Origin: Patescibacteria group bacterium
GTDB lineage: Bacteria > Patescibacteriota > Patescibacteriia > 2-01-FULL-39-33
Direction: 5' to 3'
Assembly (NCBI GenBank): GCA_041649575.1
Contig: JBAZMW010000001.1
Location: 60,001 to 92,000 of the forward strand
Length of the DNA stretch: 32,000 nt
Positions within the stretch are counted from its first letter, which is position 1. Every line of letters begins with the position of its first letter. The notes under the pieces are model-generated. The model did no database searches and had not been told where the DNA came from. It saw only the letters and a program-made list of their open reading frames with translations. Below are positions 10,296-30,463 of the stretch, piece after piece. A program made the position numbers and the translations under genes.

Positions 10296-11648
10296 TTATT
10301 GCGTTGGAAGCCTCTTTTTTTTGCCGATAATTTTAACAAGCTCTCTGATATCACTAATAGAAACAACCCTTGTTTTATTAGTAGCAGCACCCTTGTTTGG
10401 CGGGGAGACGATTTTCTCGAAGTTAAGCTTGAGGGCTTCAGAGATAATTTTTTCCATTTGCGGTACCGATCGAATTTCGCCGGCCAGGCCCAGCTCGCCA
10501 AAAATCAAGAGCCCAGGGCTAACAGGCAGTTCTAAAAAGGCAGAAATTATAGCGGTAGCAACCGCTAAATCCACACCAGGGTCTTTTATTTTCAAACCGC
10601 CGGCAATATTTAGGTAAATATCCTGGTTATTAAGGTTGAGTTTGGCTATTTTGGAAATCACGGCAATAATTAACTGCAGACGATTAAGATCAAAGCCGGC
10701 AGCTTTTCTTTGGGGATAGCCAAAAACAGTTTTGGTGACCAGCGCCTGCACCTCTAGAAAAAACGGCCGTTGACCTTCTATCACTGCGGTGACAACCGCA
10801 CCAGTGGCCGGATAATTTTCTTTTTCCAAAAATACTTGTGAGGGATTGCTGACTTCTTTCAGGCCAAGGTCGGTCATTTCAAAAACGCCTATTTCTCCAG
10901 TGGAGCCAAAGCGATTTTTACTGCTGCACAAAATTTTATAAAAATTTTGGTTGTCATTTTCCAAATACAGGACGGTATCGACCAGGTGTTCCAAGCTCTT
11001 AGGTCCGGCGACCAGCCCTTCTTTGGTGACGTGGCCGATAATGATGATAGGGATGCCAGATTTTTTGGCCACTTCCAGCAGCTGACTGGTAATGGAGATA
11101 ATTTGCGCGGCCGAGCCCAGATTAGAGGCGGGATCATGAAAACGCATAGTCTGGATAGAATCAACAATAGCCAGTTCCGGCTTGACTTCTTCGATGGTGG
11201 CGATGATTTTACCGATGTCGGTCTGGGCCAAAAAACGCAGATTATTAAGATCCAGGTTGATTCTTTGGGCTCGAATCTTTACTTGATTGCCGGACTCCTC
11301 GCCGGAGACATAAAGAACATTTTTTAATTTATCGGAGATTTGCAGGCAGAGGGTCGATTTGCCAACGCCCGGATCGCCGCCGATCAAGATCAGAGACCCC
11401 TTGACTATGCCGCCTCCTAAAACCCGGTCCAACTCTTGAATTTTAGTAGAGAGTCTGGCCTGACTGATGTCGGGCAATTGCTTCAGATCTATTGGTTGGT
11501 CAGGCGCGGTTTTGGGCGTTTTTTTATCGTTGTTTTCAACGGCTTGCTCCTGAATGGTTCCCCAAGAGCCGCATTCCAAACAGCGCCCTTGCCACTTGGG
11601 ATATTGGGCGCCGCATTTGAGGCAGGAATAAATTAAGCTATGGGCCAT
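10296..11648 (-). CDS. radA: DNA repair protein RadA/Sms
   Basis: N-terminal Zn finger 'CLKCGAQYPKWQGRCLECGSWGT'. Walker A 'GGDPGVGKSTL'. 'KNRFG' motif. Lon-like C-terminal domain. Confidence 0.9.
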   Translation of the reverse strand: MAHSLIYSCLKCGAQYPKWQGRCLECGSWGTIQEQAVENNDKKTPKTAPDQPIDLKQLPDISQARLSTKIQELDRVLGGGIVKGSLILIGGDPGVGKSTLCLQISDKLKNVLYVSGEESGNQVKIRAQRINLDLNNLRFLAQTDIGKIIATIEEVKPELAIVDSIQTMRFHDPASNLGSAAQIISITSQLLEVAKKSGIPIIIIGHVTKEGLVAGPKSLEHLVDTVLYLENDNQNFYKILCSSKNRFGSTGEIGVFEMTDLGLKEVSNPSQVFLEKENYPATGAVVTAVIEGQRPFFLEVQALVTKTVFGYPQRKAAGFDLNRLQLIIAVISKIAKLNLNNQDIYLNIAGGLKIKDPGVDLAVATAIISAFLELPVSPGLLIFGELGLAGEIRSVPQMEKIISEALKLNFEKIVSPPNKGAATNKTRVVSISDIRELVKIIGKKKRLPTQ

Positions 11649-11649
11649 A

Positions 11650-12435
11650 TTATTTTAGGTAACATTGGCAGGAGTAAGTATTAATGGTGTCTCCATTTTT
11701 TGGGGCGTGGGTGTAGACCAGGTTAGCGTATCTTTCAGAGCACCAAGAGAAGCAGAGTTGATCGGCGGCCTCCTGACTGTTAGCTTTAATGTCGGTGGGG
11801 CCATTACGATAATTCAGAGTAGTCGCTTTGTCACGGCAAAAACAGGACCATAAATTAGGACTACTGCCTTGCTCTACACGTTCAAACTCCTGGTTGTTGT
11901 TAGAACATTGGTTTTGGCATTGTTTTTCGGCTTCTTCTTTACTACCGGTAGAAGCTAAGCCGACTGGCTGGGTGCTGGCAGTGGGGGTTGTAACACTGTC
12001 TAAATGCGGCATCGTTATCACTGTCAGCTTGGGATTGATCAAATACAAAATAGTGAAAGACAAAAAAGCCAAGACCAGACCAATCAAGGCGGAGATAATA
12101 ATCTCTTTGGCCTGTCCGATCTCGGAACTATTGCCTCGAGAAGCCAGCCACTTGAATCCGCCCCACATCACCATCACCGCCGCCAAGACTCCCACGGCGC
12201 CGATGATTAGACGATACCAAATATTAAAGTAAGTGCCCAAGATGTTAGCATCGGTGACATTAAATTCTTTGGCCATATTGCCGAGAGGCACATTAAGGCA
12301 AACTTTTCCTGCTGGGCAAGAGCCGGCGGCTCCGGAGGCGGCTGCCGGAGTTTCTCCGGGGGTAGCTCCCAAAGCCAGAAGAGGAGCAGTAAAAAACAAG
12401 ACAACCAAAAATAAGATTATTATATTTTTTTTCAT
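11650..12435 (-). CDS. VirB2/TrbC-like T4SS pilin with a Cys-rich C-terminal ectodomain
   Basis: Signal peptide 'MKKNIIILFLVVLFFTAPLLALGA'. Two hydrophobic helices flank a short basic loop ('GAVGVLAAVMVMWGGFKWLASRGNSSEIGQAKEIIISALIGLVLAFLSFTILYLI'). The C-terminal ~95 aa contain 10 Cys. Confidence 0.55.
   Translation of the reverse strand: MKKNIIILFLVVLFFTAPLLALGATPGETPAAASGAAGSCPAGKVCLNVPLGNMAKEFNVTDANILGTYFNIWYRLIIGAVGVLAAVMVMWGGFKWLASRGNSSEIGQAKEIIISALIGLVLAFLSFTILYLINPKLTVITMPHLDSVTTPTASTQPVGLASTGSKEEAEKQCQNQCSNNNQEFERVEQGSSPNLWSCFCRDKATTLNYRNGPTDIKANSQEAADQLCFSWCSERYANLVYTHAPKNGDTINTYSCQCYLK
12002..12212. repeat. 211-bp near-identical segment, copy 1 (pilin core)
   Basis: By hand alignment, 208 of 211 positions are identical to 13054-13264. 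The three differences are all transitions and all synonymous. Confidence 0.95.
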
Positions 12436-12449
12436 TTTATTGGCGGTTT

Positions 12450-13631
12450 TTAGAGACAGGACGTTTGCGCCCGATTAATGAACTGTTGTTCGCCATCGGC
12501 GCTTTCTAAAATATTGGCGTTACTGTTGATTCGGCTGGATACCCCCATACCCGGATCGGTTTTGAAAAAATTAAGGTAGTTGGTCCTCATATATTGGGCG
12601 GCTCCCGCTCGATCGCCAGCCCGGATTCTAGAAGCGGTTTCACTTAAAAATACTGAATTAGGACCAAATTGATAAGCGGTGTCTGCTAAAACCGCTTTAG
12701 CCTGGGGATCAAGTCTCTCCCAGCCGTCGCCATAAGCGTTGGCCGCTCCCGGCCAATAGGTATTATTGTAATTATTCCAAAACCAATTTTTTTCCGTTTC
12801 ATAATCGACAGAATTCGGCCTTTGGTCGCTATTATGCCCAAAGCCATAAGTATAGCCGTGCAGGTCGGCATAAGGAGTGCTGTTGTATCCCTCATAAGAA
12901 GCGGTAAAGGCATGATAATAATCAACGCCACCGGCGGTTTCTGAGCAAGGAACTTTGGCTTGGGAGTAATATGGCCCTGGCAGACCGTTTGGGTCGACAG
13001 ATAAAGAGATGCCTCTGGGAACAAGGTTGGTATGAACAACCTGCACACTATCCAAATGCGGCATCGTTATCACTGTCAGCTTGGGATTGATCAAATACAA
13101 AATAGTGAAAGACAAAAAAGCCAAGACTAGACCAATCAAGGCGGAGATAATAATTTCTTTAGCCTGTCCGATCTCGGAACTATTGCCTCGAGAAGCCAGC
13201 CACTTGAATCCGCCCCACATCACCATCACCGCCGCCAAGACTCCCACGGCGCCGATGATTAGACTAAACCAAACAGCAAGGTAGTCTTCCAGGCCAGAGG
13301 CGGTAGTTTTGGAGCCAAGAGGCACATTAAGCTTAATACTGATTGATCCTTTTGATTCTTCGGAATTAATTCCGACAGGGCCGCTGAATTGATCGAGAGT
13401 TTCTCCGGCGGCCAAGAAGGAGCGACAGCCTTGCTGGCAGGTTATCAAGAGAGAATCGTTGGCCGCCCTGGCCAGGCCCTGATTTTCCCTGTTTCCATAA
13501 TCCGTGTAACATTGGTTGACGCAGTCGGTGTATTTTGTTTTGTCGGCCAAAACATTTTTTGGCAACAAGCTGATGGCCAAGAGGATAATCGCAGGCAAAA
13601 TTATTCTTAACAGTTGTCGTTTGGTGATCAT
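12450..13631 (-). CDS. VirB2/TrbC-like pilin core fused to a C-terminal GH24-like lysozyme domain
   Basis: Signal/anchor 'LRIILPAIILLAISLL', then a Cys-containing N-domain. The pilin core is identical to that of the neighbouring gene. Then 'SYEGYNSTPYADLHGYTYGFGHN...LDPQAKAVLADTAYQFG', resembling the phage lysozyme signature E-G-x5-Y-x-D-xx-G-x-T-x-G-x-G-H. Confidence 0.55.
   Translation of the reverse strand: MITKRQLLRIILPAIILLAISLLPKNVLADKTKYTDCVNQCYTDYGNRENQGLARAANDSLLITCQQGCRSFLAAGETLDQFSGPVGINSEESKGSISIKLNVPLGSKTTASGLEDYLAVWFSLIIGAVGVLAAVMVMWGGFKWLASRGNSSEIGQAKEIIISALIGLVLAFLSFTILYLINPKLTVITMPHLDSVQVVHTNLVPRGISLSVDPNGLPGPYYSQAKVPCSETAGGVDYYHAFTASYEGYNSTPYADLHGYTYGFGHNSDQRPNSVDYETEKNWFWNNYNNTYWPGAANAYGDGWERLDPQAKAVLADTAYQFGPNSVFLSETASRIRAGDRAGAAQYMRTNYLNFFKTDPGMGVSSRINSNANILESADGEQQFINRAQTSCL
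13054..13264. repeat. 211-bp near-identical segment, copy 2 (pilin core)
   Basis: Same evidence as copy 1. Flanking sequence on both sides is unrelated, apart from a short 'agaggcacattaag' match upstream in gene orientation. Confidence 0.95.
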
Positions 13632-14350
13632 CGGTTTAGTTCTATTTTGATAATGTTTTCGAAATCGGCCAAAGAAGCTTGTCCGGAGAGCTCCTGGCTG
13701 TTGATATAAAAATGAGGCGTACCAGTAAGCAGGAGCTCATCGGCTTCCTGGACATCTTGCTCAATTAGCTTTTCAATATTTTTGTCTGTTAAACAATCAG
13801 AAAAAAGTTTTTCATTTAAATTCAGTTTTTGGGCTAGCGCCAGAAGATTTTTTGCAGAAAAATTTTTTTGGTTTTGCCACAACAGATCGCTGTAGGCCCA
13901 AAATTTATTTTGTTGCCCAGCGCAGCGGGCGGCTTGATGGGCCAGATAAGAATCTTCTACTCCCGAAAAAGGCAGGTCTTTCCAAACTAGCCTGACCTGA
14001 TCCGGATATTTTTCAATAATTTTTTTCAACACATTTTGGGTGGCAGCGCCGTATTCGCAGGAGAAACTGGAAAATTCGAAAATGGTTATTGGCGCATTAG
14101 GATTGCCCAAAATTGGCGCTTGGGCTTTCATTTTTGGCTCTAGGAGTTTTTGTTCGGGCACATAACTGACCAAGCCATTGTCGATCACTGCTTTTTGTCC
14201 GGTAAGGGCTGCCGGGGCCGTGTTTTTTAATGCCGTCTGGGTTTTTTGCCGGGAGACGGAGGCCAAAGACAGCAAAAAGAAAGACACAATTATTATCGCC
14301 AAAATAACGAGAATACCTTTGAGATAGTCGGGAGTTTTATTTCTTGGCAT
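13628..14350 (-). CDS. Membrane-anchored DsbA/thioredoxin-fold protein with a CxxG (CEYG) site
   Basis: N-terminal TM 'GILVILAIIIVSFFLLSLA'. DsbA-family layout: 'ITIFEFSSFSCEYGAATQ...VRLVWKDLPF...HQAARCAGQQNKFWAYSDLLW...TGTPHFYIN'. Its stop overlaps the downstream pilin gene start by 4 nt (ATGA). Confidence 0.7.
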   Translation of the reverse strand: MPRNKTPDYLKGILVILAIIIVSFFLLSLASVSRQKTQTALKNTAPAALTGQKAVIDNGLVSYVPEQKLLEPKMKAQAPILGNPNAPITIFEFSSFSCEYGAATQNVLKKIIEKYPDQVRLVWKDLPFSGVEDSYLAHQAARCAGQQNKFWAYSDLLWQNQKNFSAKNLLALAQKLNLNEKLFSDCLTDKNIEKLIEQDVQEADELLLTGTPHFYINSQELSGQASLADFENIIKIELNR

Positions 14351-14355: not shown

Positions 14356-15594
14356 TTAGATCTTAACTTTGTAAATTTTTTTGGTATTATTGTCGGTGAA
14401 GAAAAGCGAATGAGTATCGGTGCTGATGATTAGCTGACCAATGGAATGATAGCCGTCGGGATTGGCAATAATTTTTTTCGATCCGGTACGCAGATCGATT
14501 TCATAAATTTGGTCGTTGACCTCATTGGCTACCTCCGGATCCAGGCCGACTCCGGCCGGAGGGTTAATGGGAACAGCGCAGAACAGGCGGTCATTGCCGC
14601 TAAAGGCGCATTTATTAGCCCAGGTAGTCAGGTCTAATTTGAGCCGGTTTTCGCCAATCGCTCCGGGCGTGGCTTCGGAAATCCAAAGTTCCGGCTTATA
14701 ATCGTTGTCGGAACTGTAGACGCTGTAGAGTATTCTTTGGCCGTCGGGCGACCATTTCCCTTGAAAGCCGCGGCCCTCCACAATCATCAGTTTGAAATTT
14801 TCATTATTTAGGCCAATAAAATAGACTTCGGAACGATTAGCGTCTTTGCCTTGAGTAAAGGTGGCCACCATCTGGTTGTTGGGCGACCAGTTGGAGTCGA
14901 ATTTATCTTCCACGCCGCCGATTCTTTCCAGGGTTTTGCTTTGCGAACCGTCATAGTTGGCAACTGCCAAAAAACGATTTTCTGGATCCAGGGCCAAGCT
15001 TTTGAAAACCAGCTTTTCGTCATTGGGGGAGAAAGAAAAATCTTCCCAATGGTTGGGCAGAGTCAGTTGCTTCTTGTTTTTGAAATCATAAACAATATTG
15101 GAGCCGTCCGGATATTCTAAAACGGCCTTTTCCAAGTTGTTAGACCAGCTGACATTCTTGACGTTATAGAAAATTTTGTCGCTGAATTCGCTGATTTTGC
15201 CGTCGAGAGAAAGGCGATAGAATTTGCCGGTTTTAGGATCATAATAGACCAGCTCGCCGTTTTGGGAACTGGAAACAAAATAAGCGTTATCCTTGCTTAC
15301 CAATTCGGTTTCATTGGTTGGGGCAGTGGTTGGTTCGAGAGTGGTTGCCGGGGTTTTGCCGTTGACGTTCTCGGTTGTCGGTAATTGGCCGTTAGCATCA
15401 ACAGTATAAATTTTGCCGTTAATATTCACAGTTAGCGGCAAGCGGCCATTAGCATTGGCATTAGTATTAATATTGGCGTTGGTTGGCGGCACAAAAAAAC
15501 TGCGGAAAAAAAAGTAATAAAGAAAAAAGCCAAACAAGGCAATCGCGACAATAAAAAGAAGGATGATCCCTATTTTTTTCCAATCCAGTTCCAT
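14356..15594 (-). CDS. N-terminally anchored PD40/TolB-like beta-propeller protein
   Basis: TM 'IGIILLFIVAIALFGFFLYYFFF'. Repeated PD40-like motifs: 'FSPNDEKLVF', 'WSPNNQMVAT', 'WSPDGQRILYSV'. Confidence 0.6.
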   Translation of the reverse strand: MELDWKKIGIILLFIVAIALFGFFLYYFFFRSFFVPPTNANINTNANANGRLPLTVNINGKIYTVDANGQLPTTENVNGKTPATTLEPTTAPTNETELVSKDNAYFVSSSQNGELVYYDPKTGKFYRLSLDGKISEFSDKIFYNVKNVSWSNNLEKAVLEYPDGSNIVYDFKNKKQLTLPNHWEDFSFSPNDEKLVFKSLALDPENRFLAVANYDGSQSKTLERIGGVEDKFDSNWSPNNQMVATFTQGKDANRSEVYFIGLNNENFKLMIVEGRGFQGKWSPDGQRILYSVYSSDNDYKPELWISEATPGAIGENRLKLDLTTWANKCAFSGNDRLFCAVPINPPAGVGLDPEVANEVNDQIYEIDLRTGSKKIIANPDGYHSIGQLIISTDTHSLFFTDNNTKKIYKVKI

Positions 15595-15612: not shown

Positions 15613-16974
15613 TTATTGACCGCCAATTCTTTGAGCCGCCTCTTGCACGGCAGTGTTGCCTCCGGGCAAAGCTCCGGCCAGCCAAATCATGGCGCCGCCC
15701 CAAAGGCCAATATTATAGATCCGGTAGCCGACGTAAAGTATCAAAGCGATAATGCTAAACAAAATTCCGTTAATAATGGCCAGAATAATTATTTCGGTCC
15801 ATTTAGCCAGCTCTTTTGGCAGCCACCGGCCGATCAAGTAGTCTTCGCCAAAGTCGGCTATTTTATCGGTAAAGAGGGTGGTTGCCAGATAGAGATTCAG
15901 TCCCCAAAGAGTGAGAGTAGTCCAATCAAGCCAGACCGCTCCCCACATTGAAGTAAGAATGGCGGCACTCTCTTGCTTGACGGCCAAATTAACCGTAGCT
16001 TTGGCATCGGAAATTTTTAAAGAAGCGGCTAGGCTGGCGGCTTGTTTAAAGTTGTTTCTCGATTTCTCCCTGGCGCTTTGAATTCTTTGTTCTGTCGTTT
16101 GCCTTAGTTTGTCAGCTTCTTTTTCTTTGCTTTTATTTTTTTCTGATTCTTTTTTGTTTTCTTCTTCGACTTCTGGGGTTGGTGCTTGCGATTTTAGATC
16201 GCCGTTTTTTTCGTCTTTTTTGCCAGTGGCGTCTTCTTTTGGTTTTTTATCTTTTTTATCATCCTCCCCCTTTTTCTCACCTTCCGCCTTTTCCGATTTT
16301 TTGTCTTTCTTGTCTTTTTTTTCGCCTTCCTTTTCCTTTGCCCCTGTTTCTCCAGCCGGTTTTTCTTCCTCATCTGTTGCCTCGGCCGGCTCTCCAGCGA
16401 TATTTTTTTTATGTTCTTCACCGGCCTCGGTTTGTGGTTCTGTCTCCGTTTCTTCTTCCGAGTCAGAAAAGAGATTGGCATTAGTGTCTTCACCGGCGCC
16501 TCCCCAATCTTCACTCTGGTCGTAGATGTCTTCTAGATCATAGGGATTTTCTTTGTCCCGCGGCAGATAGCCTTCCGCCTCCCTCCTTTTTTCTAACCGG
16601 GCTTCCTCCTGTTTTCTTCGTAAAGCGGCAGCCTGGCTGGAGCTGTCTTTTAGGCCGCCACTGCCAATAATGGAAGCGTTGGCAGCCCGTCTAGCAACAC
16701 CCAAGGTATCGCCAAAATTTTTTGCTCCGGCTTTGGCTCGGCCAATCGCTCCTTGCTGGGCCAGAGGAAAACCGCTGGCTCGAGAGCTGATTTTTTGGGC
16801 TATTTTGTCTAGTGTTAGGCCGGCAACTCTGGTCATTCTGCCCGCGCGGCTGTTGGGACTAATGGCGCCAGCGGCTTTGGTTGCCCCGGCCAGGCCTCTT
16901 AAGCCAAGAGTGTCCAAAGACCTACCCGCCGGGCGAGAGGTTCTGTTTAATTGGTGGGCGAGATTATCGGACAT
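15613..16974 (-). CDS. Membrane protein with a basic N-terminus, a ~200-aa Glu/Lys-rich low-complexity region and a C-terminal multi-TM domain
   Basis: 'EEKPAGETGAKEKEGEKKDKKDKKSEKAEGEKKGEDDKKDKKPKED...' followed by hydrophobic segments 'ILTSMWGAVWLDWTTLTLWGLNLYLATTLF', 'IIILAIINGILFSIIALILYVGY' and 'GLWGGAMIWLAGALPG'. No signal peptide. Confidence 0.6.
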   Translation of the reverse strand: MSDNLAHQLNRTSRPAGRSLDTLGLRGLAGATKAAGAISPNSRAGRMTRVAGLTLDKIAQKISSRASGFPLAQQGAIGRAKAGAKNFGDTLGVARRAANASIIGSGGLKDSSSQAAALRRKQEEARLEKRREAEGYLPRDKENPYDLEDIYDQSEDWGGAGEDTNANLFSDSEEETETEPQTEAGEEHKKNIAGEPAEATDEEEKPAGETGAKEKEGEKKDKKDKKSEKAEGEKKGEDDKKDKKPKEDATGKKDEKNGDLKSQAPTPEVEEENKKESEKNKSKEKEADKLRQTTEQRIQSAREKSRNNFKQAASLAASLKISDAKATVNLAVKQESAAILTSMWGAVWLDWTTLTLWGLNLYLATTLFTDKIADFGEDYLIGRWLPKELAKWTEIIILAIINGILFSIIALILYVGYRIYNIGLWGGAMIWLAGALPGGNTAVQEAAQRIGGQ

Positions 16975-17009
16975 CTAAATAAAGTTTAGCCGCGCCAATA
17001 CTGATCAAA

Positions 17010-21152: not shown

Positions 21153-21252
21153 TTAAATAAATAGTTTTAATTTTTACTGTTTTATTGTATAATAAATTGT
21201 ATAACATGACTGTTGATAAGTCAATTTATTTAAACTCTGGAAGGTGACAACT

Positions 21253-22578
21253 ATGAGATGGCCAAGAGCCAAAGGATCTAAATTGTTAATCGTCAATTTC
21301 TTGACGTTTTTGGTTATTTTGGCGTGTTTGACGTTGGCTGGCAAAAACATTGCAGCCCAAACCGCGATTTGGCATGAGCCAGAAGGGACGCCGCCCAACA
21401 ACAATGTGCCCGCACCTTTAAATATTAATACCAAGTTTGTAGGCGATAATTTATCGCTTGAGGGTGGCTGGGACTATGGTTTAGGAGCCATGAAACTCAC
21501 TTTGTCCGGCTGCAACAATGCCAACGAGGTTCTTAAGTGGGACAATGACCAAGAAAAATGGGTTTGCGGTGAAGCCCAGGCCAATAATTTGTTAAGCGTC
21601 TTGCAAAAAAGTTCTGACGCCAGCGAATTTACTGGCAATGTTTTGATTGGCAGTGAAACCAACGGGGCTAATTTGTATTTAGGCGGTGAATTTACAAGTA
21701 AATGGCTTCATGCCACTGCCCAAGGCGACAACAGTATTCTGGGTAATTTGGGTTTGGGCACTATTACTCCACGAGCCAAACTTCATATCTTCGATTTGAG
21801 CAAAAACGCTGAAATCGACTTACAAAGCGTTGATGGCGAGGGCAATCACTGGGCTATTTATCATGACGCCTCTAGTAATTCTTTGCGTTTTTGGAACAAT
21901 AAAGCGCCAGGTGACAAAAATGTTATTTCCTTGGGAGACGGAGGAAAATTGGGACTGGGCACCGTTAATCCCAATAGTAATTTGCATATTTACGACAGTT
22001 CTAAGAATGCAGAAATAGATATTCAAAGCGGCGGTGGCAGCAATGAGCATTGGGCTATTTACCATGATGCCAGTAGCGGTGATTTAAGGTTTTGGAAGGA
22101 CGATAACGATGGCAATTCTAATAACGACAACCAGGTTAAAATCAATAAACAGGGAATAATTACTGCCGAAGATTTTTGTTCGGAATCCGGGAAATGTTTA
22201 AGCGGCGGCTTAGGTTTTATGGGTCAGACCAGCCAGGAATTCACGGGCGCGTCCGGGGGATATAAGGGAGCCAACGCCAAATGTTCGGCACAGTATCAGA
22301 ATAGCCACGTTTGCAGTACGGACGAAATCCTGGCTTTGATTAATAAAGGATTATCGCCGAATTCTGGTTGGGGCTGGATCTCTAACGGGCCGCCAGGATT
22401 TCCGGCGATCATCCCCAACTATAAATCGCGAGTCAATGATTGTAATGGTTGGACTAACGGTACCGGCGATATCAATGGAGAAAAAACTTATGGTAATTGG
22501 TGGCAGTTTGATAGTAATGGCGGTCGAGGATATTTGGTAAATTGTAATGTCGATATGCCGTTTTTGTGCTGTCATTAG
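21253..22578 (+). CDS. Secreted protein with two ~80-aa tandem repeats and a Cys-containing C-terminal domain
   Basis: I prefer ATG 21253 (GAAGGTG 6 nt upstream) to the listed GTG 21244. Hydrophobic signal 'LLIVNFLTFLVILACLTLAG..AAQTA'. Repeats 'LHIFDLSKNAEIDLQSVDGEGNHWAIYHDASSNSLRFW' and 'LHIYDSSKNAEIDIQSGGGSNEHWAIYHDASSGDLRFW'. C-terminus 'GANAKCSAQYQNSHVCSTDE...CNGW...PFLCCH'. Confidence 0.7.
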   Translation: MRWPRAKGSKLLIVNFLTFLVILACLTLAGKNIAAQTAIWHEPEGTPPNNNVPAPLNINTKFVGDNLSLEGGWDYGLGAMKLTLSGCNNANEVLKWDNDQEKWVCGEAQANNLLSVLQKSSDASEFTGNVLIGSETNGANLYLGGEFTSKWLHATAQGDNSILGNLGLGTITPRAKLHIFDLSKNAEIDLQSVDGEGNHWAIYHDASSNSLRFWNNKAPGDKNVISLGDGGKLGLGTVNPNSNLHIYDSSKNAEIDIQSGGGSNEHWAIYHDASSGDLRFWKDDNDGNSNNDNQVKINKQGIITAEDFCSESGKCLSGGLGFMGQTSQEFTGASGGYKGANAKCSAQYQNSHVCSTDEILALINKGLSPNSGWGWISNGPPGFPAIIPNYKSRVNDCNGWTNGTGDINGEKTYGNWWQFDSNGGRGYLVNCNVDMPFLCCH

Positions 22579-22614
22579 GCGTTTTAAAAGCTTAAATAAA
22601 ATTAATTAAAAAAT

Positions 22615-25600
22615 ATGAACAGTAAAATCGTTTTTAAGACATTAATGCCAATAGCGGTAATGGCATTACTTTTTACGTCTTTAGCTCTGGTGGCCCAAGC
22701 GGCGCCCAATACCACGTGTCCAGGCTCTGGCGGCGGTATTGAGTGTCCCAGCTCCAAACCTTTTTTGTGTGGCGGGGTCTGTGTGGGCTCTTTACCAGTG
22801 CAGCCGCAGGATCCGGATCCTAATAATTACACTCTTGATTGTGACACTTGCCAATGGGTGTGTTATGGAGGAGCGGTCAGCTGTAATGGTTTGTGTAGAG
22901 CATCACAAGCCGGCCAAACTTGTGATTGGTCAGATGCCGCCGATACCGATGACGGCAAAAAGGACGCCTGTGGCAGCTGCGCCTCCTGTAATACTCCCAC
23001 TTATTTGGATTGTCGTGATGTCAGCCGAGGCTGTGCCCGACCGGACGAATTTACCACTTGCGTCGGCGCTAACTGCAACACAACTACAGGAGAATGCAAT
23101 TCCGGTTTTGCCAAAGATTCCTGCGGTCGTTGCGTCTCTAATGTTTATACCCCGGTTTATCTTAATTATTATGAGCCACAAACTGGAAATGTAGCTATTT
23201 CTGGCAACTTAAGAACCTCCAATGGTGATTTATATTTAAGCAGCACCAAAGCCATCAGAGTCGATGGCCTTGGTCAGACAGCTCTAAATATTGGCAACTG
23301 GGACGCTAATGGAGAGGGAGTGCAATTGGGTGTTTGGGGGAGCTTGAGGGTTGGTGATCTTAAAAATTATTGGCAAACAGGAACTGCGGAAGTCAGTATC
23401 AATGGTTCGCCGGCAAAAATCGCTGTTTTAAGCGCTGTTTCTGCCGACGGCCAGTTCCCGATAGGCGCTATCGCCAACGGAGTGGCAATTCTTTCGACAG
23501 AAAATTCCGGCAGTGATCCGTTTATCGATTTGGTTGACGGAAATGACAGTAGTGAGTCTCTTAACCTGAGATACAATCGCGCTTCCCGAACAACCAGTTT
23601 GACCGGATCAGGTAAATATTTTATCGATGGGCCGATTTATTTGTGGGGCGGAGAATATATTTCAGCCGGCAAAGAAGAGGGTAATTGGGGATTAAATCTG
23701 GGGGTTAATGGTGTTGATAGAATGACAATTGCCAGTGGCGGCAACGTTGGGATTGATACTGGCACCGTCGCTCCGGCTTCCAGGCTGACGGTTTTTGGCA
23801 ACGCGCAATTTGGCGATGAAAAAAATTATTGGAAATTTGAGAATACGCCCTTAACAGTTAATGGCCAAACAATCACCGTGGCCTTAGCCAGAGGCAATTC
23901 CGGCGATGGCCAGTGGCCGCTTGGCGCCATTGCTAACGGCGTGGCAGTTTTGGCAGAGGGCGCTGGCAGCAGTCCCTTTCTCATTTTCGTTAATAAGAAT
24001 AACATGGAAAATGCCTTTACCTTGGGCTATAACCCTACTTCCAAAAACGCCTTGTTTACCGGCGCCGATAGTTATTCTTTCGATAATAAAATTAGCCTTG
24101 GCGGCGGTGGTGAATATATTTATTCTCCCAGAGACGGGAATGATCCGGACAGGTGGTCCTTAAAATTTTTTACTGGTTTTAATAACGCCATGACTATCGC
24201 CAATAGCGGTAATGTCGGCATTGGCACCAGCCAGCCACAGCAAAAGTTAGATGTTAATGGAGCTATTCGGCTTGCCGGTCAAGCCCAAGAAACAGATCAG
24301 GCGCTTTATAATATTAATGGCGAGCTTTATTGGAACGGCAGCAAATTAGGTTCTGGACAAGGCGGTTCTGATTGGGTCAAGGTGGGCAATAATCTTGTTT
24401 ATACCGGCGGCAATGTCGGTATTGGCACCACCAACCCGACCAGCGGGCTTGAAGTCAGTGGCCAAATAGCAGTTAAAGCGGTTAATGGCACTGGTGACGG
24501 CTGGGATTATTCTAGTTTTGTTTTGGATTCGACCGACAACAGTAAATGGGGATTAGTCCATCGGCAAGCCGAAAGCAGCCCCCAATTGCAGCACAGTCTT
24601 AATATCGAATATAATTCACCAGGCGGGTTTAGTTATAACAGAATGCTGACTATTATGCCACCAACTAAAGACTTGAGCGGCTTAAGTCCTTTGACCATCA
24701 TGGGTAATGGCGATGTTTTAATGCCAAACAGAGTTGCGATAGCTAGATTGAATCTTGGTAGTAATAGCAGTGATGCAGCCCCCTCTATTACCGGTAATGT
24801 TGGAGCATTATCGTTTTTGACCAATAACCAACAAAGAATGATGGTTGATCTTGGTGGAAATGTGGGCATTGGTCTGGATAATCCCGGGCAAAAGTTAGAT
24901 GTCAGTGGCGTGATTAGAGCGCAGGAGAACGGCGCGGCCAGAATTATTGCCGAAGGAAAGGGCAATGGTTGGGATTATGCCAATATTCTTCTTAAAGGTG
25001 ATACTGGCTCCGGCCCCAATGGTGGCAATACTTGGTCTTTGTCGCATCGTCAGGCTAGCGATTCAGGCAGTGAGTACAAAGACGCCTTGATTGTGGAGTA
25101 TAATGACAGCAGTAATAATAGCCATGATATGATCTGGGTTCAGGCGCCAATAATCGGTATGGAATCGGGACTTAGACCCTTTATGATAAAAAGCAACGGT
25201 GATATTCATATGAGTATGAATTTGTCGGTTGGCGGCAAGGTCGATAGCAGCAACATCAGTATTACTGGTAAGAGTGGCGGTGATAATCCAGAGTTGAGGA
25301 TGAACATGTCTGGTGATAATTATTGGGCGTTATATGGTGACAAAAACGGCCAAGGAGATTTTAGGATTTGGAATCAAACCATCCCGGGAGATAAGAATGC
25401 TCTGGTTGTAAAACAAAATACTGGCAATGTTGGTATTGGAGTGACTAGTCCGACCCAAAAATTAGATATAGCCGGCAACCTGAAGGTACAGGTAAATACT
25501 GCCTCTGCCGCTCCTGCTGCTTGCAGTGCCGCCGAAGAGGGAACAATAAAATATGTGCGAGTAGGCAACGCCGGCCACTATTACGGTTGTGCCAGAACCA

Positions 25601-25635
25601 GCGCCACGGCTTTGAGCTGGAGGAGACTGGAATAG
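22615..25635 (+). CDS. Large secreted protein (1006 aa): Cys-rich N-domain plus recurring 'GNVGIGT..P..KLDV.G' fibre-like modules
   Basis: Sec signal '...LALVAQA/AP'. I count 20 Cys in residues ~35-176. The motif 'GNVGIG(T/L/V)xxPxxKL(D/E)(V/I)xG' recurs four times, plus a degenerate 'GNVGIDT' copy. C-terminal 'CSAAEEGTIKYVRVGNAGHYYGC' disulfide-loop-like motif. Confidence 0.75.
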   Translation: MNSKIVFKTLMPIAVMALLFTSLALVAQAAPNTTCPGSGGGIECPSSKPFLCGGVCVGSLPVQPQDPDPNNYTLDCDTCQWVCYGGAVSCNGLCRASQAGQTCDWSDAADTDDGKKDACGSCASCNTPTYLDCRDVSRGCARPDEFTTCVGANCNTTTGECNSGFAKDSCGRCVSNVYTPVYLNYYEPQTGNVAISGNLRTSNGDLYLSSTKAIRVDGLGQTALNIGNWDANGEGVQLGVWGSLRVGDLKNYWQTGTAEVSINGSPAKIAVLSAVSADGQFPIGAIANGVAILSTENSGSDPFIDLVDGNDSSESLNLRYNRASRTTSLTGSGKYFIDGPIYLWGGEYISAGKEEGNWGLNLGVNGVDRMTIASGGNVGIDTGTVAPASRLTVFGNAQFGDEKNYWKFENTPLTVNGQTITVALARGNSGDGQWPLGAIANGVAVLAEGAGSSPFLIFVNKNNMENAFTLGYNPTSKNALFTGADSYSFDNKISLGGGGEYIYSPRDGNDPDRWSLKFFTGFNNAMTIANSGNVGIGTSQPQQKLDVNGAIRLAGQAQETDQALYNINGELYWNGSKLGSGQGGSDWVKVGNNLVYTGGNVGIGTTNPTSGLEVSGQIAVKAVNGTGDGWDYSSFVLDSTDNSKWGLVHRQAESSPQLQHSLNIEYNSPGGFSYNRMLTIMPPTKDLSGLSPLTIMGNGDVLMPNRVAIARLNLGSNSSDAAPSITGNVGALSFLTNNQQRMMVDLGGNVGIGLDNPGQKLDVSGVIRAQENGAARIIAEGKGNGWDYANILLKGDTGSGPNGGNTWSLSHRQASDSGSEYKDALIVEYNDSSNNSHDMIWVQAPIIGMESGLRPFMIKSNGDIHMSMNLSVGGKVDSSNISITGKSGGDNPELRMNMSGDNYWALYGDKNGQGDFRIWNQTIPGDKNALVVKQNTGNVGIGVTSPTQKLDIAGNLKVQVNTASAAPAACSAAEEGTIKYVRVGNAGHYYGCARTSATALSWRRLE

Positions 25636-25648
25636 TCTAAAATGGTAA

Positions 25649-27460
25649 ATGCTAAAGAAAAAATTTAAATATTTTTTAGGAATTGTTTTGGTGGGTATAA
25701 TTGCCGCGACTGGTTTGTTGTTTTACAATTTTAAGACATTGCAAGCGCAGAACTCCGATTATGATTTGGCCGGTTGGCTTTGGAGTGATAATTATGGCTG
25801 GATTTCTCTGAGTTCGGATAATTGCAAACTGCCCGATTGCATTCCCGGCCCTAATGATTATGGCGTTAGATTAAATTCAAACAATACGGTTAGTGGCTAT
25901 GCCTGGTCGAATAATGTTGGCTGGATCTGTTTTGGCGAAACTTGTTCGGGAGTCGCGCCCGATGGCGGAGGCCCGAGGATCGTTTTGGATGATAACAGCG
26001 GTCGATTGAGCGGCTGGGCCAAGGTGGTTTCCCTGGCAGATCAGGGCTGGATAAGTTTGGGTAGTGGAGAGGTTTTGGGCGAGATTAAAGGCGAAATATG
26101 CTATGACTGCAAACCGGTTTGCGAGGATTGGACGGCTTACAGGAGGTGTGACGGCAAGGGCTGCCAAGAATCAAACACCAAGTGCCAGGCAGGCGAGATC
26201 GGCTGCACCAATGTCGAGCCTTGCGTGGTTTATTCGGAAGAAAAATATGAACGTTGCAACACTTGTTTTTCAGAAACTTTTTTTTGCAACAATGAGAATG
26301 ATTGCCGTCAGCCGCCCGATTCCGATCCGGTGGTTGGAGGCAGCGGGAAGATTTGTTCAGATTGCCAATTAAATTGTCATAAAGAATTTGATCCTTTAAA
26401 AAAGAATAATCGGATCGTCTGCGATAAATGTTTCAGGTGCAGAAATTATGGGGTTAGCTCCGAGGTTTTGGCTGATTTTAGCAACGGTGAAATTCTGGGT
26501 TGGGGCTGGAACGGCATAAAAGAAGGAAGCAACTGGGTGGGTGGAGCCGGTTGGGTGCATTTTAATACCGGTCGGGGAGCCTTTATTGTTTATCCTTGGC
26601 TGGAAACATTGTATGGCGCGATCTATAGCTCTAATGAGGTCAGGCAAAGAGCCGGATTAATTGATAATAATGCAACTTATTGTATTTTTGCCAAAGACGT
26701 GATTAGGGTTAGTTCAGCGCGCTGTGAGGAAAGAGTAATTAGTGATGTCAATATTAATTTTCCGAGCTTGGAAGCGGAGACAAATTATCGCAATGCTTTA
26801 GGCAAAATAGATTACACTGGACTGGTGACGCCGGTGGTTGTTGAAGGCAAAACTAACAAATACGGCAACGAAATAATCAAAATAGGCGATGGCTGGCTTG
26901 GTCCTCAAGGAAATGTTTTAGACGACAAAGTCTATTATCGCGAAGGCGATCTGACGATTGGCAGCTCGGGGTTGGTTTTCAATAATGCTCCGGAAGATTC
27001 GCAACAGAAGGGCAACGGGATAATTGTGATTGATGGAGATTTGAGGGTTAATGGCGACGTGTCCTATAATGGCCAATTAACCGATGATTTAAGACAGCTG
27101 TCTTCGGTAGCCTGGCTGGTCAGGGGCGATGTAATAATTAATGGCGACGTCAAGAGATTGGCTGGAGCATTTATAATTATGGGCAAAGGCAATGATTGCG
27201 AAGAGCTGGCTGGTTCACAGCCGGATTACCCGCATTACCGACAAAACAGTTGTGGCGTATTTTTTTCTGGAGAATCGGACAAGTCGCTGACTTCCCTGGG
27301 TTTAATTATTTCCAGAGCGTTTGATTTCCGTCGCACGTTTGCTAGTCGTAAACAAGGGGCAGAGAGAATAATTTACGATGGCCGTTTGATCGCCAACCCG
27401 CCGCCAGGCCTGGAAGGGTTTGTGGAAAAGCTGCCAGTTATCAGAGATTTTTCATTTTAA
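25649..27460 (+). CDS. Secreted or anchored protein (603 aa): GW-repeat region, Cys-rich region and a beta-helix-like C-terminal half
   Basis: N-terminal TM 'FLGIVLVGIIAATGLLFY'. Repeats 'GWLWSDNYGWISL', 'GYAWSNNVGWICF', 'GWAKVVSLADQGWISL' and 'GWGWNG..GGAGWVHF'. More than 20 Cys in residues ~150-265. 'GIIVIDGDLRVNGDVSYNG...WLVRGDVIINGDVKRLAGAFIIMG'. Confidence 0.7.
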   Translation: MLKKKFKYFLGIVLVGIIAATGLLFYNFKTLQAQNSDYDLAGWLWSDNYGWISLSSDNCKLPDCIPGPNDYGVRLNSNNTVSGYAWSNNVGWICFGETCSGVAPDGGGPRIVLDDNSGRLSGWAKVVSLADQGWISLGSGEVLGEIKGEICYDCKPVCEDWTAYRRCDGKGCQESNTKCQAGEIGCTNVEPCVVYSEEKYERCNTCFSETFFCNNENDCRQPPDSDPVVGGSGKICSDCQLNCHKEFDPLKKNNRIVCDKCFRCRNYGVSSEVLADFSNGEILGWGWNGIKEGSNWVGGAGWVHFNTGRGAFIVYPWLETLYGAIYSSNEVRQRAGLIDNNATYCIFAKDVIRVSSARCEERVISDVNINFPSLEAETNYRNALGKIDYTGLVTPVVVEGKTNKYGNEIIKIGDGWLGPQGNVLDDKVYYREGDLTIGSSGLVFNNAPEDSQQKGNGIIVIDGDLRVNGDVSYNGQLTDDLRQLSSVAWLVRGDVIINGDVKRLAGAFIIMGKGNDCEELAGSQPDYPHYRQNSCGVFFSGESDKSLTSLGLIISRAFDFRRTFASRKQGAERIIYDGRLIANPPPGLEGFVEKLPVIRDFSF

Positions 27461-27487
27461 TTTAAGAGATAAAAAGTTTAAATTCCT

Positions 27488-28618
27488 ATGGGATTATTAT
27501 CGAAGCAAATAAGTTATGTGGGGGTGGATTTGGGGTCGGCTTCAATCAAGATTGTGGAGCTGGCCAATATTAACCATCGTCCCAAATTAATCACTTACGG
27601 TTTTACCGAAAAAAAATTAGCCGGTTGGGCCGGTGAAGATGCCCTGGAACGAACGGAAGAGACGGCGCAGGTAATCAAAGATGTTTATAGTAAGGCCAGA
27701 ATCGGCTCGTCTAAAGCGATTGCCGCCTTGCCGAATTTTTCGGTTTTTACTTCCATTCTAAATTTGCCGGAGATGCCCAAAAAAGAATTAGCCTCGGCAA
27801 TCGGCTGGGAAGCCAAGAAAATTATTCCGATGCCTTTGGAAGATATTATTTTGGATTGGAAAGTAATCAAAGAAACGGCCGAAGACGGTAAGGTTTTAAA
27901 AAATAATGGCATTAACCCTGGCGCAGAAATCAATCTCCAGGAGGTTAATTCATTTAAAAAGATTTTCACCAAACCCAAAAAGAATTTGAAAATCCTTTTG
28001 ACCGGAGCCAGCAAAAACTTAGTAAAGAAATACATCGATATTTTCAGACGTTCTGGCTTGAATTTATTAAGCCTGGAGACGGAGAGCTTCGCTTTAATTC
28101 GCTCGCTGGTTGGTAATGATAAATCAATAATCATGCTGGTGGATTTGGGCGCTACCACCTCCAGCATCACGGTGGTAGATGGGGGGGTGCCGGTTTTGAG
28201 TCGGAGCATCGAGGTTGGCGGCATGATGATAACCAAGGCAGTCTCGGCCAGCCTCAATGTTAATCTGGAGCGAGCCGAACAGTTTAAGCAAGACATGTCT
28301 TTGGGTGGAGAAGAGGCGGACAATTCCCTGCCACAGATAGTGGAAAGATCGTTTTCCTCGATTTTTAATGAAATAAAATACACCGTTAATCTGTATCAAG
28401 AGCAAAACAATAAAAAAATTGAAAAAATTATTTTGACCGGCGGTTCGGCTTTACTGGGTAATTTAACGGGTTATTTGTCGAGAGCGCTTAATATTAATAC
28501 TTATATTGGTGATCCCTGGTCGCGGGTCATTTTTCCCACCGAGCTCAAGCCGATCTTAGACCGCCTGGGAGCCAGATTTGCCGTGGCCATCGGATTGGCA
28601 ATGCGTAATATCGAATAA
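27488..28618 (+). CDS. pilM: Type IV pilus assembly protein PilM (actin-like ATPase fold)
   Basis: 'VGVDLGSASIKIVEL' phosphate-1 motif, 'LVDLGATTSSITVV' and 'IILTGGSALLGNL'. Followed by pilN/pilO-like genes. Confidence 0.85.
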   Translation: MGLLSKQISYVGVDLGSASIKIVELANINHRPKLITYGFTEKKLAGWAGEDALERTEETAQVIKDVYSKARIGSSKAIAALPNFSVFTSILNLPEMPKKELASAIGWEAKKIIPMPLEDIILDWKVIKETAEDGKVLKNNGINPGAEINLQEVNSFKKIFTKPKKNLKILLTGASKNLVKKYIDIFRRSGLNLLSLETESFALIRSLVGNDKSIIMLVDLGATTSSITVVDGGVPVLSRSIEVGGMMITKAVSASLNVNLERAEQFKQDMSLGGEEADNSLPQIVERSFSSIFNEIKYTVNLYQEQNNKKIEKIILTGGSALLGNLTGYLSRALNINTYIGDPWSRVIFPTELKPILDRLGARFAVAIGLAMRNIE

Positions 28619-28624
28619 TTATTT

Positions 28625-29806
28625 ATGCCCAATATTAATCTTTTACCAGAAGATTTGCGAGAGAAAGAAACCAAAGAATTGGAAAAATTGGCCAAACAGC
28701 CAAAGGTTTTGCAGGTGGAATTGACCGAACCAGAGAAAGAGAAGCTTAAAGAAGTTATGAGCGATAAAGCAAAACCATCTTTTTGGACCAAAGTGCTTGG
28801 CCCGAAAGATAAAAAAACAGTGTCTGGGATAGAGGCCGAGGTGCCAGCGGTTGCTCCCAATGAAAGTATTGATATCTTATCCTCGGCTCATAACCAAAAA
28901 GTTAGTTTTGAAAAGGCGAAAAAGCCAGTCTCTTGGTCGGGTGTTTTGGGTCCGGCCCGCTCACCTATCAGGCCGGCAGAATCAAACTCAAATACCGCGA
29001 CTTTTTCCAGCCAGGAGCCGCTGAGAGATAAAAATACAGTCAGGCAAGAGATAATTAAGAATATTGAACTGACAAAACGACAAGGACAACAAAAAGTAAG
29101 CTGGTGGAGTAGAATTTTTCAACCCAGGCCCAGGAAGCCGGAGTTAATAAAATTAGCAGCGGCTCGAGAGCCAGAAAAGAAAATTGTTAACAATAAGGGC
29201 GGTTATCATCAGGCGCCTATGAGCGAAAGATCGATTTTTGATATAAATTTAATACCGGAGGAGCTGCTGATGATAAAGAATCGGACTGCGGCTGGCAGGG
29301 TAATCTCAATTTTATTGGTTGTTATTATTGCCGGTCTCTTGGTCGGCGGTTTATACTGGTTCTTGGGTTTGAAGCAAACCGAGCTGAATAAACAACTGGC
29401 CGTTGAAGAAAAGAATTTAAGCAGTCTAAGGAATAGAATCGACGGCTATGAACTTCAATATCAAAACAGCCTGGCCTTCCAGGACAAGCTGCTGGTTTTG
29501 AGGGATTTGCTGGTCAGTCACGTTTATTGGAGCAATTTTTTTAATCTGCTGGAAAAATATACTTTGGATGATATTTATTATACCAACTTAACCGCTGATG
29601 TTTCGGGAGAATTTGTTTTGCCGGCGGTGGCCAGCGACTACCAGGCGGTCGCCAAACAGATAGAGGTTTTGAAAGAAGCCAGGGATTTTGTTAAAGAAGT
29701 CAAAGTCGATGATATTAAGTTGCGTTTTGACGACCGTAAAGGAGTCGACGGAGTGGCTTTCAAATTAAAAATAGTTTTAGCCGATGGTGTTTTAGCCAAG
29801 CGTTAA
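28625..29806 (+). CDS. pilN: PilN-like protein with a ~198-aa N-terminal extension
   Basis: Canonical PilN layout ('INLIPEEL', then TM 'VISILLVVIIAGLLVGGLYWFL', coiled coil, C-terminal domain) starts near Met199 (ATG 29219). The extension begins with a second 'INLLPEDL' motif. Confidence 0.65.
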   Translation: MPNINLLPEDLREKETKELEKLAKQPKVLQVELTEPEKEKLKEVMSDKAKPSFWTKVLGPKDKKTVSGIEAEVPAVAPNESIDILSSAHNQKVSFEKAKKPVSWSGVLGPARSPIRPAESNSNTATFSSQEPLRDKNTVRQEIIKNIELTKRQGQQKVSWWSRIFQPRPRKPELIKLAAAREPEKKIVNNKGGYHQAPMSERSIFDINLIPEELLMIKNRTAAGRVISILLVVIIAGLLVGGLYWFLGLKQTELNKQLAVEEKNLSSLRNRIDGYELQYQNSLAFQDKLLVLRDLLVSHVYWSNFFNLLEKYTLDDIYYTNLTADVSGEFVLPAVASDYQAVAKQIEVLKEARDFVKEVKVDDIKLRFDDRKGVDGVAFKLKIVLADGVLAKR

Positions 29807-29826
29807 ATTTTAAACAATAGCGATTT

Positions 29827-30447
29827 ATGAACGGTAATCTAGAAAACAAAACAAGCCAGCCTCTAAAAAAGAAAGAAGGGCGTTTTGGTTTTATTGTTAA
29901 TCAATTTTTCCCGCTAATGGTGGTTGTAATTTTTCTGGCTGTTTTAATCGGCGGTTATCTATTGGTCGTCAGATGGCAATACGAGAAATTAATCAGCAGT
30001 CGAGCCGACTTGCAGCGGCTAAAAACCGGAATAATAAATTTGGAACAGAGGGAAAAATTATTAAAGAAATACCAATCGGAGGGTTTTAGGTTTTCGGAAA
30101 ATGAGCAAGATTTGCTGTCTCTAGCCCTGCCCAAGGATTTTGACTTGCCAGCTTTTATTATTCAGCTAAAAAACTTGGCCGATAATTATGGCTTCTTGAT
30201 AAACAATATAAAAATAACCGAGACTGCTGCCGGAGCAGCGGGCAATAAAGTTCAGGTGGCCGAACAGGCCAACCATTTGAAAAAATTGGGAATCGAATTG
30301 GAGCTGATCGGCGGTGATTACGGTAATTGGAAAAAAGTATTAACTGCCATGGAGTCCAGTATTATGATTTTTGATGTCACGGCTTTGGATTTTTCGGCCG
30401 ACAACCCGGTTTATAAGTTGAAGCTGGTTACCTATTATTACAATTAA
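29827..30447 (+). CDS. pilO: PilO-like pilus assembly protein
   Basis: N-terminal TM 'FFPLMVVVIFLAVLIGGYLLV', a coiled-coil segment and a ~100-aa C-terminal domain. It sits after the pilM and pilN-like genes. Confidence 0.55.
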   Translation: MNGNLENKTSQPLKKKEGRFGFIVNQFFPLMVVVIFLAVLIGGYLLVVRWQYEKLISSRADLQRLKTGIINLEQREKLLKKYQSEGFRFSENEQDLLSLALPKDFDLPAFIIQLKNLADNYGFLINNIKITETAAGAAGNKVQVAEQANHLKKLGIELELIGGDYGNWKKVLTAMESSIMIFDVTALDFSADNPVYKLKLVTYYYN

Positions 30448-30463
30448 TTTAAACTAACGTTTT

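Follow-up and report, generated by a model that had tools for sequence, protein, structure and literature searches.

A pilin core joined to a GH24 lysozyme domain

The stretch of DNA analysed here (hereafter the window) comprises 32,000 nucleotides of contig JBAZMW010000001.1 from a Patescibacteria group bacterium and carries, on its minus strand, a gene for an extended pilin that we call gene A. Its product consists, in this order, of a predicted Sec signal peptide, an N-domain with twin CX3C motifs, a two-helix pilin core of the type IV secretion system (T4SS) family T4SS_pilin, a predicted disordered linker and a GH24 lysozyme-like domain (Table 1). Gene A is a real gene, since an identical protein (P0001; 100% identity and coverage) has been deposited at NCBI from a Patescibacteria metagenome-assembled genome (MAG), on a 245-kb contig. 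Homologues were found in further MAGs, for example P0002 with 55% identity. The minus-strand operon runs in the order beta-propeller, DsbA-like, gene A, gene B and radA. The start codon of gene A overlaps the stop codon of the DsbA-like gene (ATGA), gene B begins 14 nt past gene A, and the gap from gene B to radA is 1 nt.

Table 1 Features of the window. Positions count from the first letter of the window. AF2, AlphaFold2; ORF, open reading frame; pLDDT, predicted local distance difference test; TM, transmembrane.
Feature	Position	Strand	Basis or remark
Gene A, extended pilin with GH24 head, 393 aa	12450..13631 (stop codon counted)	-	ATG-to-stop ORF
Gene A, predicted signal peptide, residues 1-29, cleavage between VLA and D	13545..13631	-	Sequence and hydropathy
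Gene A, N-domain, residues 30-113, predicted extracytoplasmic; twin-CX3C helical hairpin and LNVPxG strand	13293..13544	-	AF2 model, alignment
Gene A, pilin core, residues 114-196: TM1, basic loop, TM2, LINPKL...HLDSV exit motif	13044..13292	-	PF18895, hydropathy, model
Gene A, linker, residues 197-228, predicted disordered	12948..13043	-	Model pLDDT below 50
Gene A, GH24 lysozyme-like domain, residues 229-393, flanked by C229 and C392	12453..12947	-	PHROG, profile, AF2, Foldseek
Gene A, catalytic N-lobe motif: E247 (12891-12893), D256 (12864-12866), T261 (12849-12851)	12849..12893	-	Alignment with T4 lysozyme
Gene B, 261-aa paralogous extended pilin	11650..12435	-	PF18895 at 7.4e-9
220-nt tract, 97.7% identical between genes A and B	13045..13264 versus 11993..12212	-	DNA comparison
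radA	10296-11648	-	Last gene of the gene A operon
DsbA-like thioredoxin-fold gene, directly upstream of gene A	13628..14350	-	PF13462 4e-28, PF01323 5.9e-18
Membrane-anchored beta-propeller (PD40/TolB-like) gene	14356..15594	-	Weak PD40/WD40 matches
T4SS gene block: 489-aa, PrgI/VirB3-like, 227-aa, VirB4-like, 189-aa TM protein	360..5511	+	Pfam
PrgI/VirB3-like gene	1863-2309	+	T4SS block
227-aa protein, just upstream of VirB4	2323-3006	+	
VirB4-like ATPase gene	3010-4914	+	T4SS block
189-aa protein	4942-5511	+	
453-aa protein	15613-16974	-	
Run of large genes	21244-30817	+	
PilM-like gene, inside the preceding run	27488-28618		PF11104 at 4e-41

At the N-terminus, the sequence reads as a Sec-type signal peptide with K4, R5 and R9 and a hydrophobic stretch at residues 10-23; hydropathy is maximal at residues 2-12 (+19), and the model places a helix at 4-21. 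The N-domain contains two CX3C motifs (C37/C41 and C65/C69), one on each predicted helix (residues 32-51 and 55-72 in the full-length model, pLDDT 70-84), and the same CX3C...CX3C pattern is present in P0005 and P0016. A conserved LNVPxG strand, in which N102 is invariant, directly precedes TM1.

PF18895 (T4SS_pilin) matches residues 114-181 with an E-value of 1.4e-9 and 38.3 bits, against a curated cutoff of 26.6, and the layout is that of a pilin: after the signal peptide come two hydrophobic helices with a short basic loop between them. By hydropathy the helices span residues ~118-142 and ~160-181, and they are modelled as 114-146 and 151-181. The loop, K143-E159 (KWLASRGNSSEIGQAKE), contributes the basic residues K143, R148 and K158. 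TM2 runs into L-I-N-P-K-L, an NPxL exit motif confined to extended forms; short pilins stop a few residues past TM2 and are without it. With 393 residues gene A is thus no small single-domain pilin (mature length ~70-130 residues), as it adds an 84-residue N-domain and a 197-residue C-terminal extension to the core. The linker that follows, ~30 residues in gene A, differs in length and sequence between homologues, and pLDDT in the full-length model falls below 50 across residues 185-236. Because of the signal peptide and the even number of TM helices, the GH24 domain is predicted to be extracytoplasmic. The 8-28 Cys residues in paralogous heads and the syntenic DsbA-like genes with CxxC point the same way.

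An earlier note on this DNA, made by a model from the letters and a list of ORFs, had described a signal or anchor, a Cys-containing N-domain and a two-helix pilin core, followed by a lysozyme-like C-domain with a GH24 signature. The signal peptide, the twin CX3C motifs and the PF18895 score of 38.3 bits bear out the first part of this description, and the extracytoplasmic placement that it gave the C-domain agrees with the predicted topology.

The C-terminal domain retains the GH24 fold and catalytic residues

The C-domain alone was matched by PHROG 2083, 'internal virion lysozyme motif', with an E-value of 5.5e-13, and more weakly by the endolysin family PHROG 7 (E 6.4e-6). Neither phmmer with the C-domain against the PDB nor a word-indexed protein search with the C-domain alone gave a match, and for the PDB a family profile was needed. 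Such a profile, built from seven pilin-fused C-domains, found T4 gp5, its top PDB match, and T4 lysozyme (E 1e-15 to 1e-13), and all seven members matched PF00959 (Phage_lysozyme; best 5.3e-15). HMMER, run exhaustively against 1.84 billion representatives, returned nine relatives of the C-domain. Six are fusions with the pilin core (P0001, which is the query itself, P0002 and P0019-P0022) and three are phage-like, two of these ~1,100 aa long.

Modelled from the family alignment with AF2, the C-domain adopts the two-lobed alpha+beta lysozyme fold (pLDDT 89.3; predicted template modelling score 0.87). Foldseek searches of the PDB and BFVD with this model returned GH24 lysozymes exclusively, at a probability of 1.00 and TM-scores of 0.58-0.66. 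The comparison of sequence profiles and folds that the earlier note had proposed thus came out in favour of its GH24 assignment. The signature that the note had singled out corresponds to the catalytic N-lobe of GH24. Residues E247, D256 and T261 align with E11, D20 and T26 of T4 lysozyme, the spacing from Asp to Thr being one residue less in gene A. The catalytic Glu, whose loss the note had held would speak against its proposal, is kept together with the Asp in all 11 aligned pilin-fused GH24 domains, and the position of T26 varies (T/S/N/D). Two Cys residues, the first opening the domain and the second in its penultimate position, bracket it in 10 of 11 homologues and are absent as a pair from the eleventh; this covariation is consistent with a disulfide and thereby with a location outside the cytoplasm. 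With its GH24 catalytic residues and modelled fold intact, the C-domain is predicted to have muramidase activity. A holin-endolysin or prophage origin was considered for this stretch and rejected on the grounds of chromosomal context, T4SS synteny and the lack of phage genes.

SLT (PF01464), the GH23 domain typical of VirB1, was not matched in gene A. The term 'VirB2-VirB1 chimera' used in the earlier note therefore holds as regards a fusion of pilin and hydrolase; VirB1 enters it by analogy only, the fold being GH24 and not GH23/SLT.

One pilin core carries exchangeable heads

A search with the core, in one genome per GTDB species, yielded 43 loci from Buchanan-, Kerfeld-, Veblen- and Komeilibacteria and unnamed Patescibacteria, a sample biased toward the core subtype of gene A by the search pattern. 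With a hidden Markov model of the core, nearly all members of this subtype proved to be 260-600 aa long, with a C-terminal extension of 130-350 aa. Arrays of short pilins (94-163 aa) were present in two Saccharibacteria-like loci only, and no short pilin was seen in T4SS loci of the ABY1 type. A word-indexed search with the core profile gave short pilins of <=202 aa only and was thus unusable for counting fusions. The fusion of pilin core and hydrolase, which the earlier note had suggested looking for in other genomes, recurs among these loci with its head exchanged.

We clustered 58 C-terminal extensions and ran Pfam on one representative per cluster, so that the following labels are extrapolated to the other members. 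Ten extensions fell to VanY/Peptidase_M15, five to SLT, five to GH24 (the window included) and one to a 3D domain. A Peptidase_M15_3 cluster has four members, two of them matched by Pfam (7.4e-9). Two Cys-rich families (unkC1 and unkC2; eight and seven members) are the largest unassigned ones and matched nothing in the PDB or Pfam; many further heads are singletons. Among the latter, three that look LAS- or NlpC/CHAP-like by eye (L004:1595, L002:5926, L012:6935) had no Pfam match at E <= 0.01 and were left uncounted. Relatives such as L006 bear an SLT head (5.3e-18) on the same core. The earliest homologue search had already returned SLT heads on P0008, P0010 and P0011, and LAS-type peptidases and others elsewhere. 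Gene A is one member of a modular family in which the same core bears interchangeable wall-hydrolase heads, and in this respect the singular chimera of the earlier note has to be given up.

Two different heads may stand side by side in one genome. In L005 (2346-4259), a tandem pair on identical cores carries a GH24 head and an M15_3 head. In L012 (5701-8005), a GH24 head is paired with a head that is NlpC/CHAP-like by eye, which Pfam does not confirm. Two full pilin cores and a fragment of a third precede a head of the SLT cluster in a 598-aa ORF of L002 (4119-5915, plus strand); this is a 'double pilin' with four TM segments or else the result of a fusion or frameshift between neighbouring genes. 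Beside the short-pilin array of L040, no stand-alone hydrolase was found within the locus. Public databases silently hold the combination, as precomputed PF18895+PF00959 and PF18895+PF01464 architectures, and one such fusion bears the JGI product name 'GH24 family phage-related lysozyme'.

Paralogous pilins share near-identical cores

Gene B has a core as in gene A, followed by a 111-aa C-terminal extension that holds eight Cys residues. The two genes share the 220-nt tract of Table 1, with five differences, all synonymous. Its borders are abrupt, and the flanking sequence cannot be aligned on either side. The same pattern was seen in other genomes: core DNA of paralogues within one genome is 70-100% identical (100% in L005, 95% in L001), and the N- and C-terminal parts of these paralogues are unrelated despite their near-identical cores. 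The cores within short-pilin arrays are merely 20-60% identical to one another. The pilin core thus undergoes concerted evolution across paralogues; either frequent gene conversion or selection that keeps the cores identical is at work, and the heads are swapped as cassettes.

The head of gene B contains a small module twice (CX3C ... [W/Y]SC[F/Q]C) and had no match in Pfam or the PDB. A resembling module, CX3C...[W/F]xCxC, also occurs in P0017 and in L003 (4220-5299).

Extended pilins are syntenic with a T4SS

The plus-strand T4SS block of the window matches PF12666 (1.3e-8), PF19044 (3.6e-29) and PF12846 (8.9e-12), and its PrgI and VirB4 genes lie 8.7 kb away. Among the 43 loci, VirB4 was found in 20, PrgI in 18, the 227-aa protein in 20 and the 189-aa protein in 19; the beta-propeller recurs in 34, and the DsbA-like protein and RadA in 22 each. 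In about 20 of the 43 genomes, genes for the 489-aa protein, PrgI, the 227-aa protein, VirB4 and the 189-aa protein are followed on one collinear strand by the pilin genes, and the 3' part of this operon reads: pilin with Cys-rich head, beta-propeller, DsbA, pilin with hydrolase head, RadA. The slot between beta-propeller/DsbA and RadA holds at least one recognisable hydrolase-pilin in 23 loci and in the window. In a comparison that included L019, L020, L029 and L038, Buchananbacteria-like loci and the window had the block from beta-propeller to RadA inverted with respect to the T4SS block, and in Kerfeld- and Veblenbacteria-like genomes the two blocks were collinear, which points to an ancestral single operon split later by inversion.

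Several neighbours deserve mention in their own right. The beta-propeller, of all neighbours the best conserved beside the extended pilins, stands between two pilin genes in the collinear operons and is a candidate for an unrecognised T4SS or pilus component. The 189-aa and 227-aa proteins had no Pfam match, yet are kept in 19-20 related T4SS loci. The shorter of the two starts with a TM segment and continues as a soluble domain, a layout as expected of a VirB8/PrgL-like component, for which it is a candidate; this component is mostly missing according to a published survey of Patescibacteria T4SS (PMC12102498). DsbA-like homologues in L001, L014 and L021 are without CxxC, and others have CPYC, CYGC and the like.

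Further from the pilin genes, the middle of the 453-aa protein is a long stretch of low complexity, rich in K, E and D, and its C-terminus is hydrophobic and polytopic; the extreme AT skew (-0.46) at 16001-17000 is due to its gene. That gene is syntenic in five loci (clpB, 453-aa gene, beta-propeller) and had no Pfam match. The run at 21244-30817 contains large genes with no Pfam match (444, 1006, 603, 393, 206 and 117 aa) around the PilM-like gene and probably represents a type IV pilus locus whose components have diverged.

Comparison with known systems

Wall cutting in other T4SS is carried out by separate, usually membrane-tethered proteins such as VirB1, PrgK, TraG of pIP501 and CwlT (PMC12624023, PMC12102498). 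A survey of Patescibacteria T4SS and two T4SS reviews of 2025 list VirB1 and VirB2 apart in every reference system, and the sole fusions that they mention are those of VirB3 with VirB4. The supplementary tables of PMC12102498 contain no lysozyme or SLT terms, and our searches of the literature on Patescibacteria T4SS and Southlakia and of the 2025 T4SS reviews yielded no account of a fusion between pilin and hydrolase. The view expressed in the earlier note, that pilin and wall hydrolase are separate in classical T4SS and that their fusion is undescribed, accords with this literature.

VirB1 (GH23), PrgK, TraG(pIP501), CwlT and TcpG resemble gene A in being encoded with a T4SS, in acting outside the membrane and in their usual membrane tether. 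They differ in that the tether is a plain signal or TM segment and not a pilin core, and in their SLT/CHAP catalytic domains as against GH24, although SLT sits on the same core in five related genomes. These hydrolases often join a glycosidase and a peptidase, and the Gram-positive two-activity hydrolases are mirrored by glycosidase and peptidase heads split over tandem pilin paralogues, as for example in L005.

The pilin arrays of Southlakia epibionticum and TM7x (PMC10633639, PMC12102498, PMC12857230) share the PF18895 core with its WGGFK...G(D/N)S...AK...IGL signature, and likewise combine a signal peptide with a two-helix hairpin, tandem paralogues and a position within or close to a monoderm-type T4SS locus without relaxase. 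They consist, however, of short pilins (95-165 aa in L040 and L042) that end just past TM2 and whose cores are ~25-40% identical, whereas the extended pilins have 260-600 aa, the NPxL motif, a C-domain of 130-350 aa and near-identical cores per genome. Separate peptidase and lysozyme genes beside virB4 are essential in Southlakia, and so are its arrayed pilins (PMC12102498, PMC10633639). That peptidase/lysozyme and pilin are separate there and fused here suggests a functional link, in the manner of a Rosetta-stone argument.

Virion lysozymes (the internal virion proteins of PHROG 2083 and T4 gp5) are the closest relatives of the head and likewise have GH24 covalently within a wall-crossing structure; they are, however, phage structural proteins without pilin hairpin or T4SS, and the window has no phage context. 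Flagellinolysin, a proteolytic flagellin, is a polymerising filament subunit with an active enzyme domain, a metallopeptidase in the variable region. Its filament, which is made of flagellin, and its enzyme are of another kind than in gene A, itself a putative filament subunit. SpmX of Caulobacterales is likewise a bacterial membrane protein that has domesticated a GH24 domain of phage type, but with an N-terminal muramidase, C-terminal TM segments and the role of a polar scaffold, and without pilin core or T4SS context.

Interpretation of the fusion

The reading that we favour, with a probability of about 0.6, is that gene A encodes a T4SS-linked pilin core that tethers a wall-cutting GH24 module and fills a VirB1/PrgK-like role. 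The product would be exported by Sec, and its two-helix hairpin would form the VirB2-like core of a Patescibacterial T4SS of monoderm type. The C-terminus would then lie on the outer side of the membrane, with the GH24 muramidase on a flexible linker of ~30 residues. By the likeliest mechanism, the pilin core would bring the enzyme to where the T4SS is assembled, or into the filament as it grows, so that peptidoglycan would be cut solely where the apparatus or filament has to pass; if the subunit is extruded, it would bring the same head to a host wall. The target may be the wall of the producer, that of the host or both, and of four points that lean to an extruded, host-directed head (that the pilin alone leaves the cell, that the nearest relatives of the head are virion lysozymes, that hydrolase types turn over and that paralogue cores are identical) none is decisive.

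Several results weigh against this reading. Alignment of the core with Agrobacterium VirB2 by hhalign (using a protein 99% identical to the annotated virB2) gave a probability of 0.9%, and homology was not detected; the core profile matched no solved pilin in the PDB, with one spurious transporter hit at E 1.6. That PF18895 proteins polymerise or bind a T4SS is a presumption. The full-length AF2 model of gene A is poor (pLDDT 62.6), and in Foldseek its hairpin resembled generic TM hairpins only. With the C-domain alone, PF00959 scored 17-19.5 bits, under its cutoff of 22.3. In the window, comF, a 207-aa gene and recG separate the T4SS block from the beta-propeller-to-RadA block, radA sets the pilin genes still further apart, and the two blocks lie on opposite strands. 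The DsbA-like neighbours mostly have a CPYC-type active site; the copy in the window, like the three homologues named above, has no CxxC (it reads CEYG) and may be a single-Cys variant or have lost its activity. The fast swapping of the hydrolase type, finally, is not obviously needed for cutting the producer's own wall.

PF04956 (TrbC/VirB2) gave an E-value of 0.06 with gene A and 24.2 bits with its best relatives, under the cutoff of 27.9; weak matches were present in 11 of the 20 extended pilins scanned, and the domain was also present in ~25 of the 120 short core relatives. Direct homology between the core and canonical VirB2 was not established, and kinship is suggested by PF18895, these weak PF04956 matches and T4SS synteny. 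The label 'VirB2-like' given by the earlier note is therefore fitting as to family and genomic setting, and goes beyond the data as to direct VirB2 homology.

A possible alternative, to which we would give appreciably less credence, is that the extended pilins co-polymerise through their identical cores and display the heads on the surface or tip of a filament, with the host wall as primary target. The host wall would be opened from outside for epibiotic feeding or transfer, and the Cys-rich heads would be adhesin-like. The pilin is the sole T4SS part that leaves the cell, and C-terminal extensions of F-pilin are exposed on the outside of the pilus. Paralogue cores of 70-100% DNA identity with unrelated ends fit subunits of one lattice, although recent gene conversion alone could explain that identity. 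The head is most closely related to lysozymes of the virion interior or tail, which attack a target wall from outside (phrog_2083 at 5.5e-13 versus phrog_7 at 6.4e-6; T4 gp5), the hydrolase type changes between close relatives, and the ABY1-type T4SS loci, as far as seen, have no short pilin. Against this, filaments have not been observed in these lineages, and a 20-kDa head on each subunit would be a steric burden. In its most specific form the idea is a little less probable: in ABY1-type Patescibacteria, an enzymatically armed pilus of core-identical extended pilins might drill the host wall, its heads (muramidase, lytic transglycosylase, D,D- or L,D-peptidase, Cys-rich binder) being exchanged by recombination at the core borders.

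It is unlikely that the hairpin is a mere membrane anchor of a housekeeping autolysin that serves growth or division and has no T4SS role. The immediate neighbours, which in roughly half of the loci and in the window are housekeeping genes (radA, recG, clpB), would suit such an autolysin, as would the undemonstrated VirB2 homology. However, the pilin genes are collinear with PrgI/VirB4 in ~20 genomes, the PF18895 core is shared with the short pilin arrays of Saccharibacteria, and the strict conservation of the loop and NPxL exceeds the needs of a passive anchor.

Less probable again is a pro-protein or polymorphic effector, in which the pilin part would be a trafficking module and the C-terminal enzyme would be freed, by cleavage after the NPxL...PxL junction, or delivered by the T4SS as an antibacterial effector. 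A conserved N-module with sharply bounded, swappable enzyme cassettes does resemble polymorphic toxin loci, the junction motif is conserved, and TrbC-type pilins undergo C-terminal processing. On the other hand, the gaps of 14 nt (A-B) and 1 nt (B-radA) leave no room for an immunity ORF, so that the locus lacks this mark of a polymorphic toxin; the block encodes no protease, and the heads are wall hydrolases typical of assembly factors of secretion machines. A non-catalytic, SpmX-like GH24 scaffold repurposed for protein-protein or wall binding is very improbable: the structural matches do include the muramidase domain of SpmX and the position of T26 is variable, but each of the 11 domains keeps the catalytic Glu and Asp, and five other bona fide hydrolase families fill the same slot in other genomes.

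Implications for Patescibacteria

VirB1 has gone undetected in most Patescibacteria with VirB2-like genes (PMC12102498), and hydrolase-pilin fusions are one explanation for this 'missing' VirB1. In the one Patescibacterium that can be manipulated genetically, the T4SS and its pilin array are essential for living as an epibiont, and a lineage in which hydrolase and pilin are covalently joined offers a direct and testable link between the pilin and wall breaching. Its heads (GH24, SLT, M15) are small and soluble, and can be expressed and tested on producer- versus host-type peptidoglycan. Should the subunits polymerise, they would form the first pilus of conjugative type that bears enzymatic heads.

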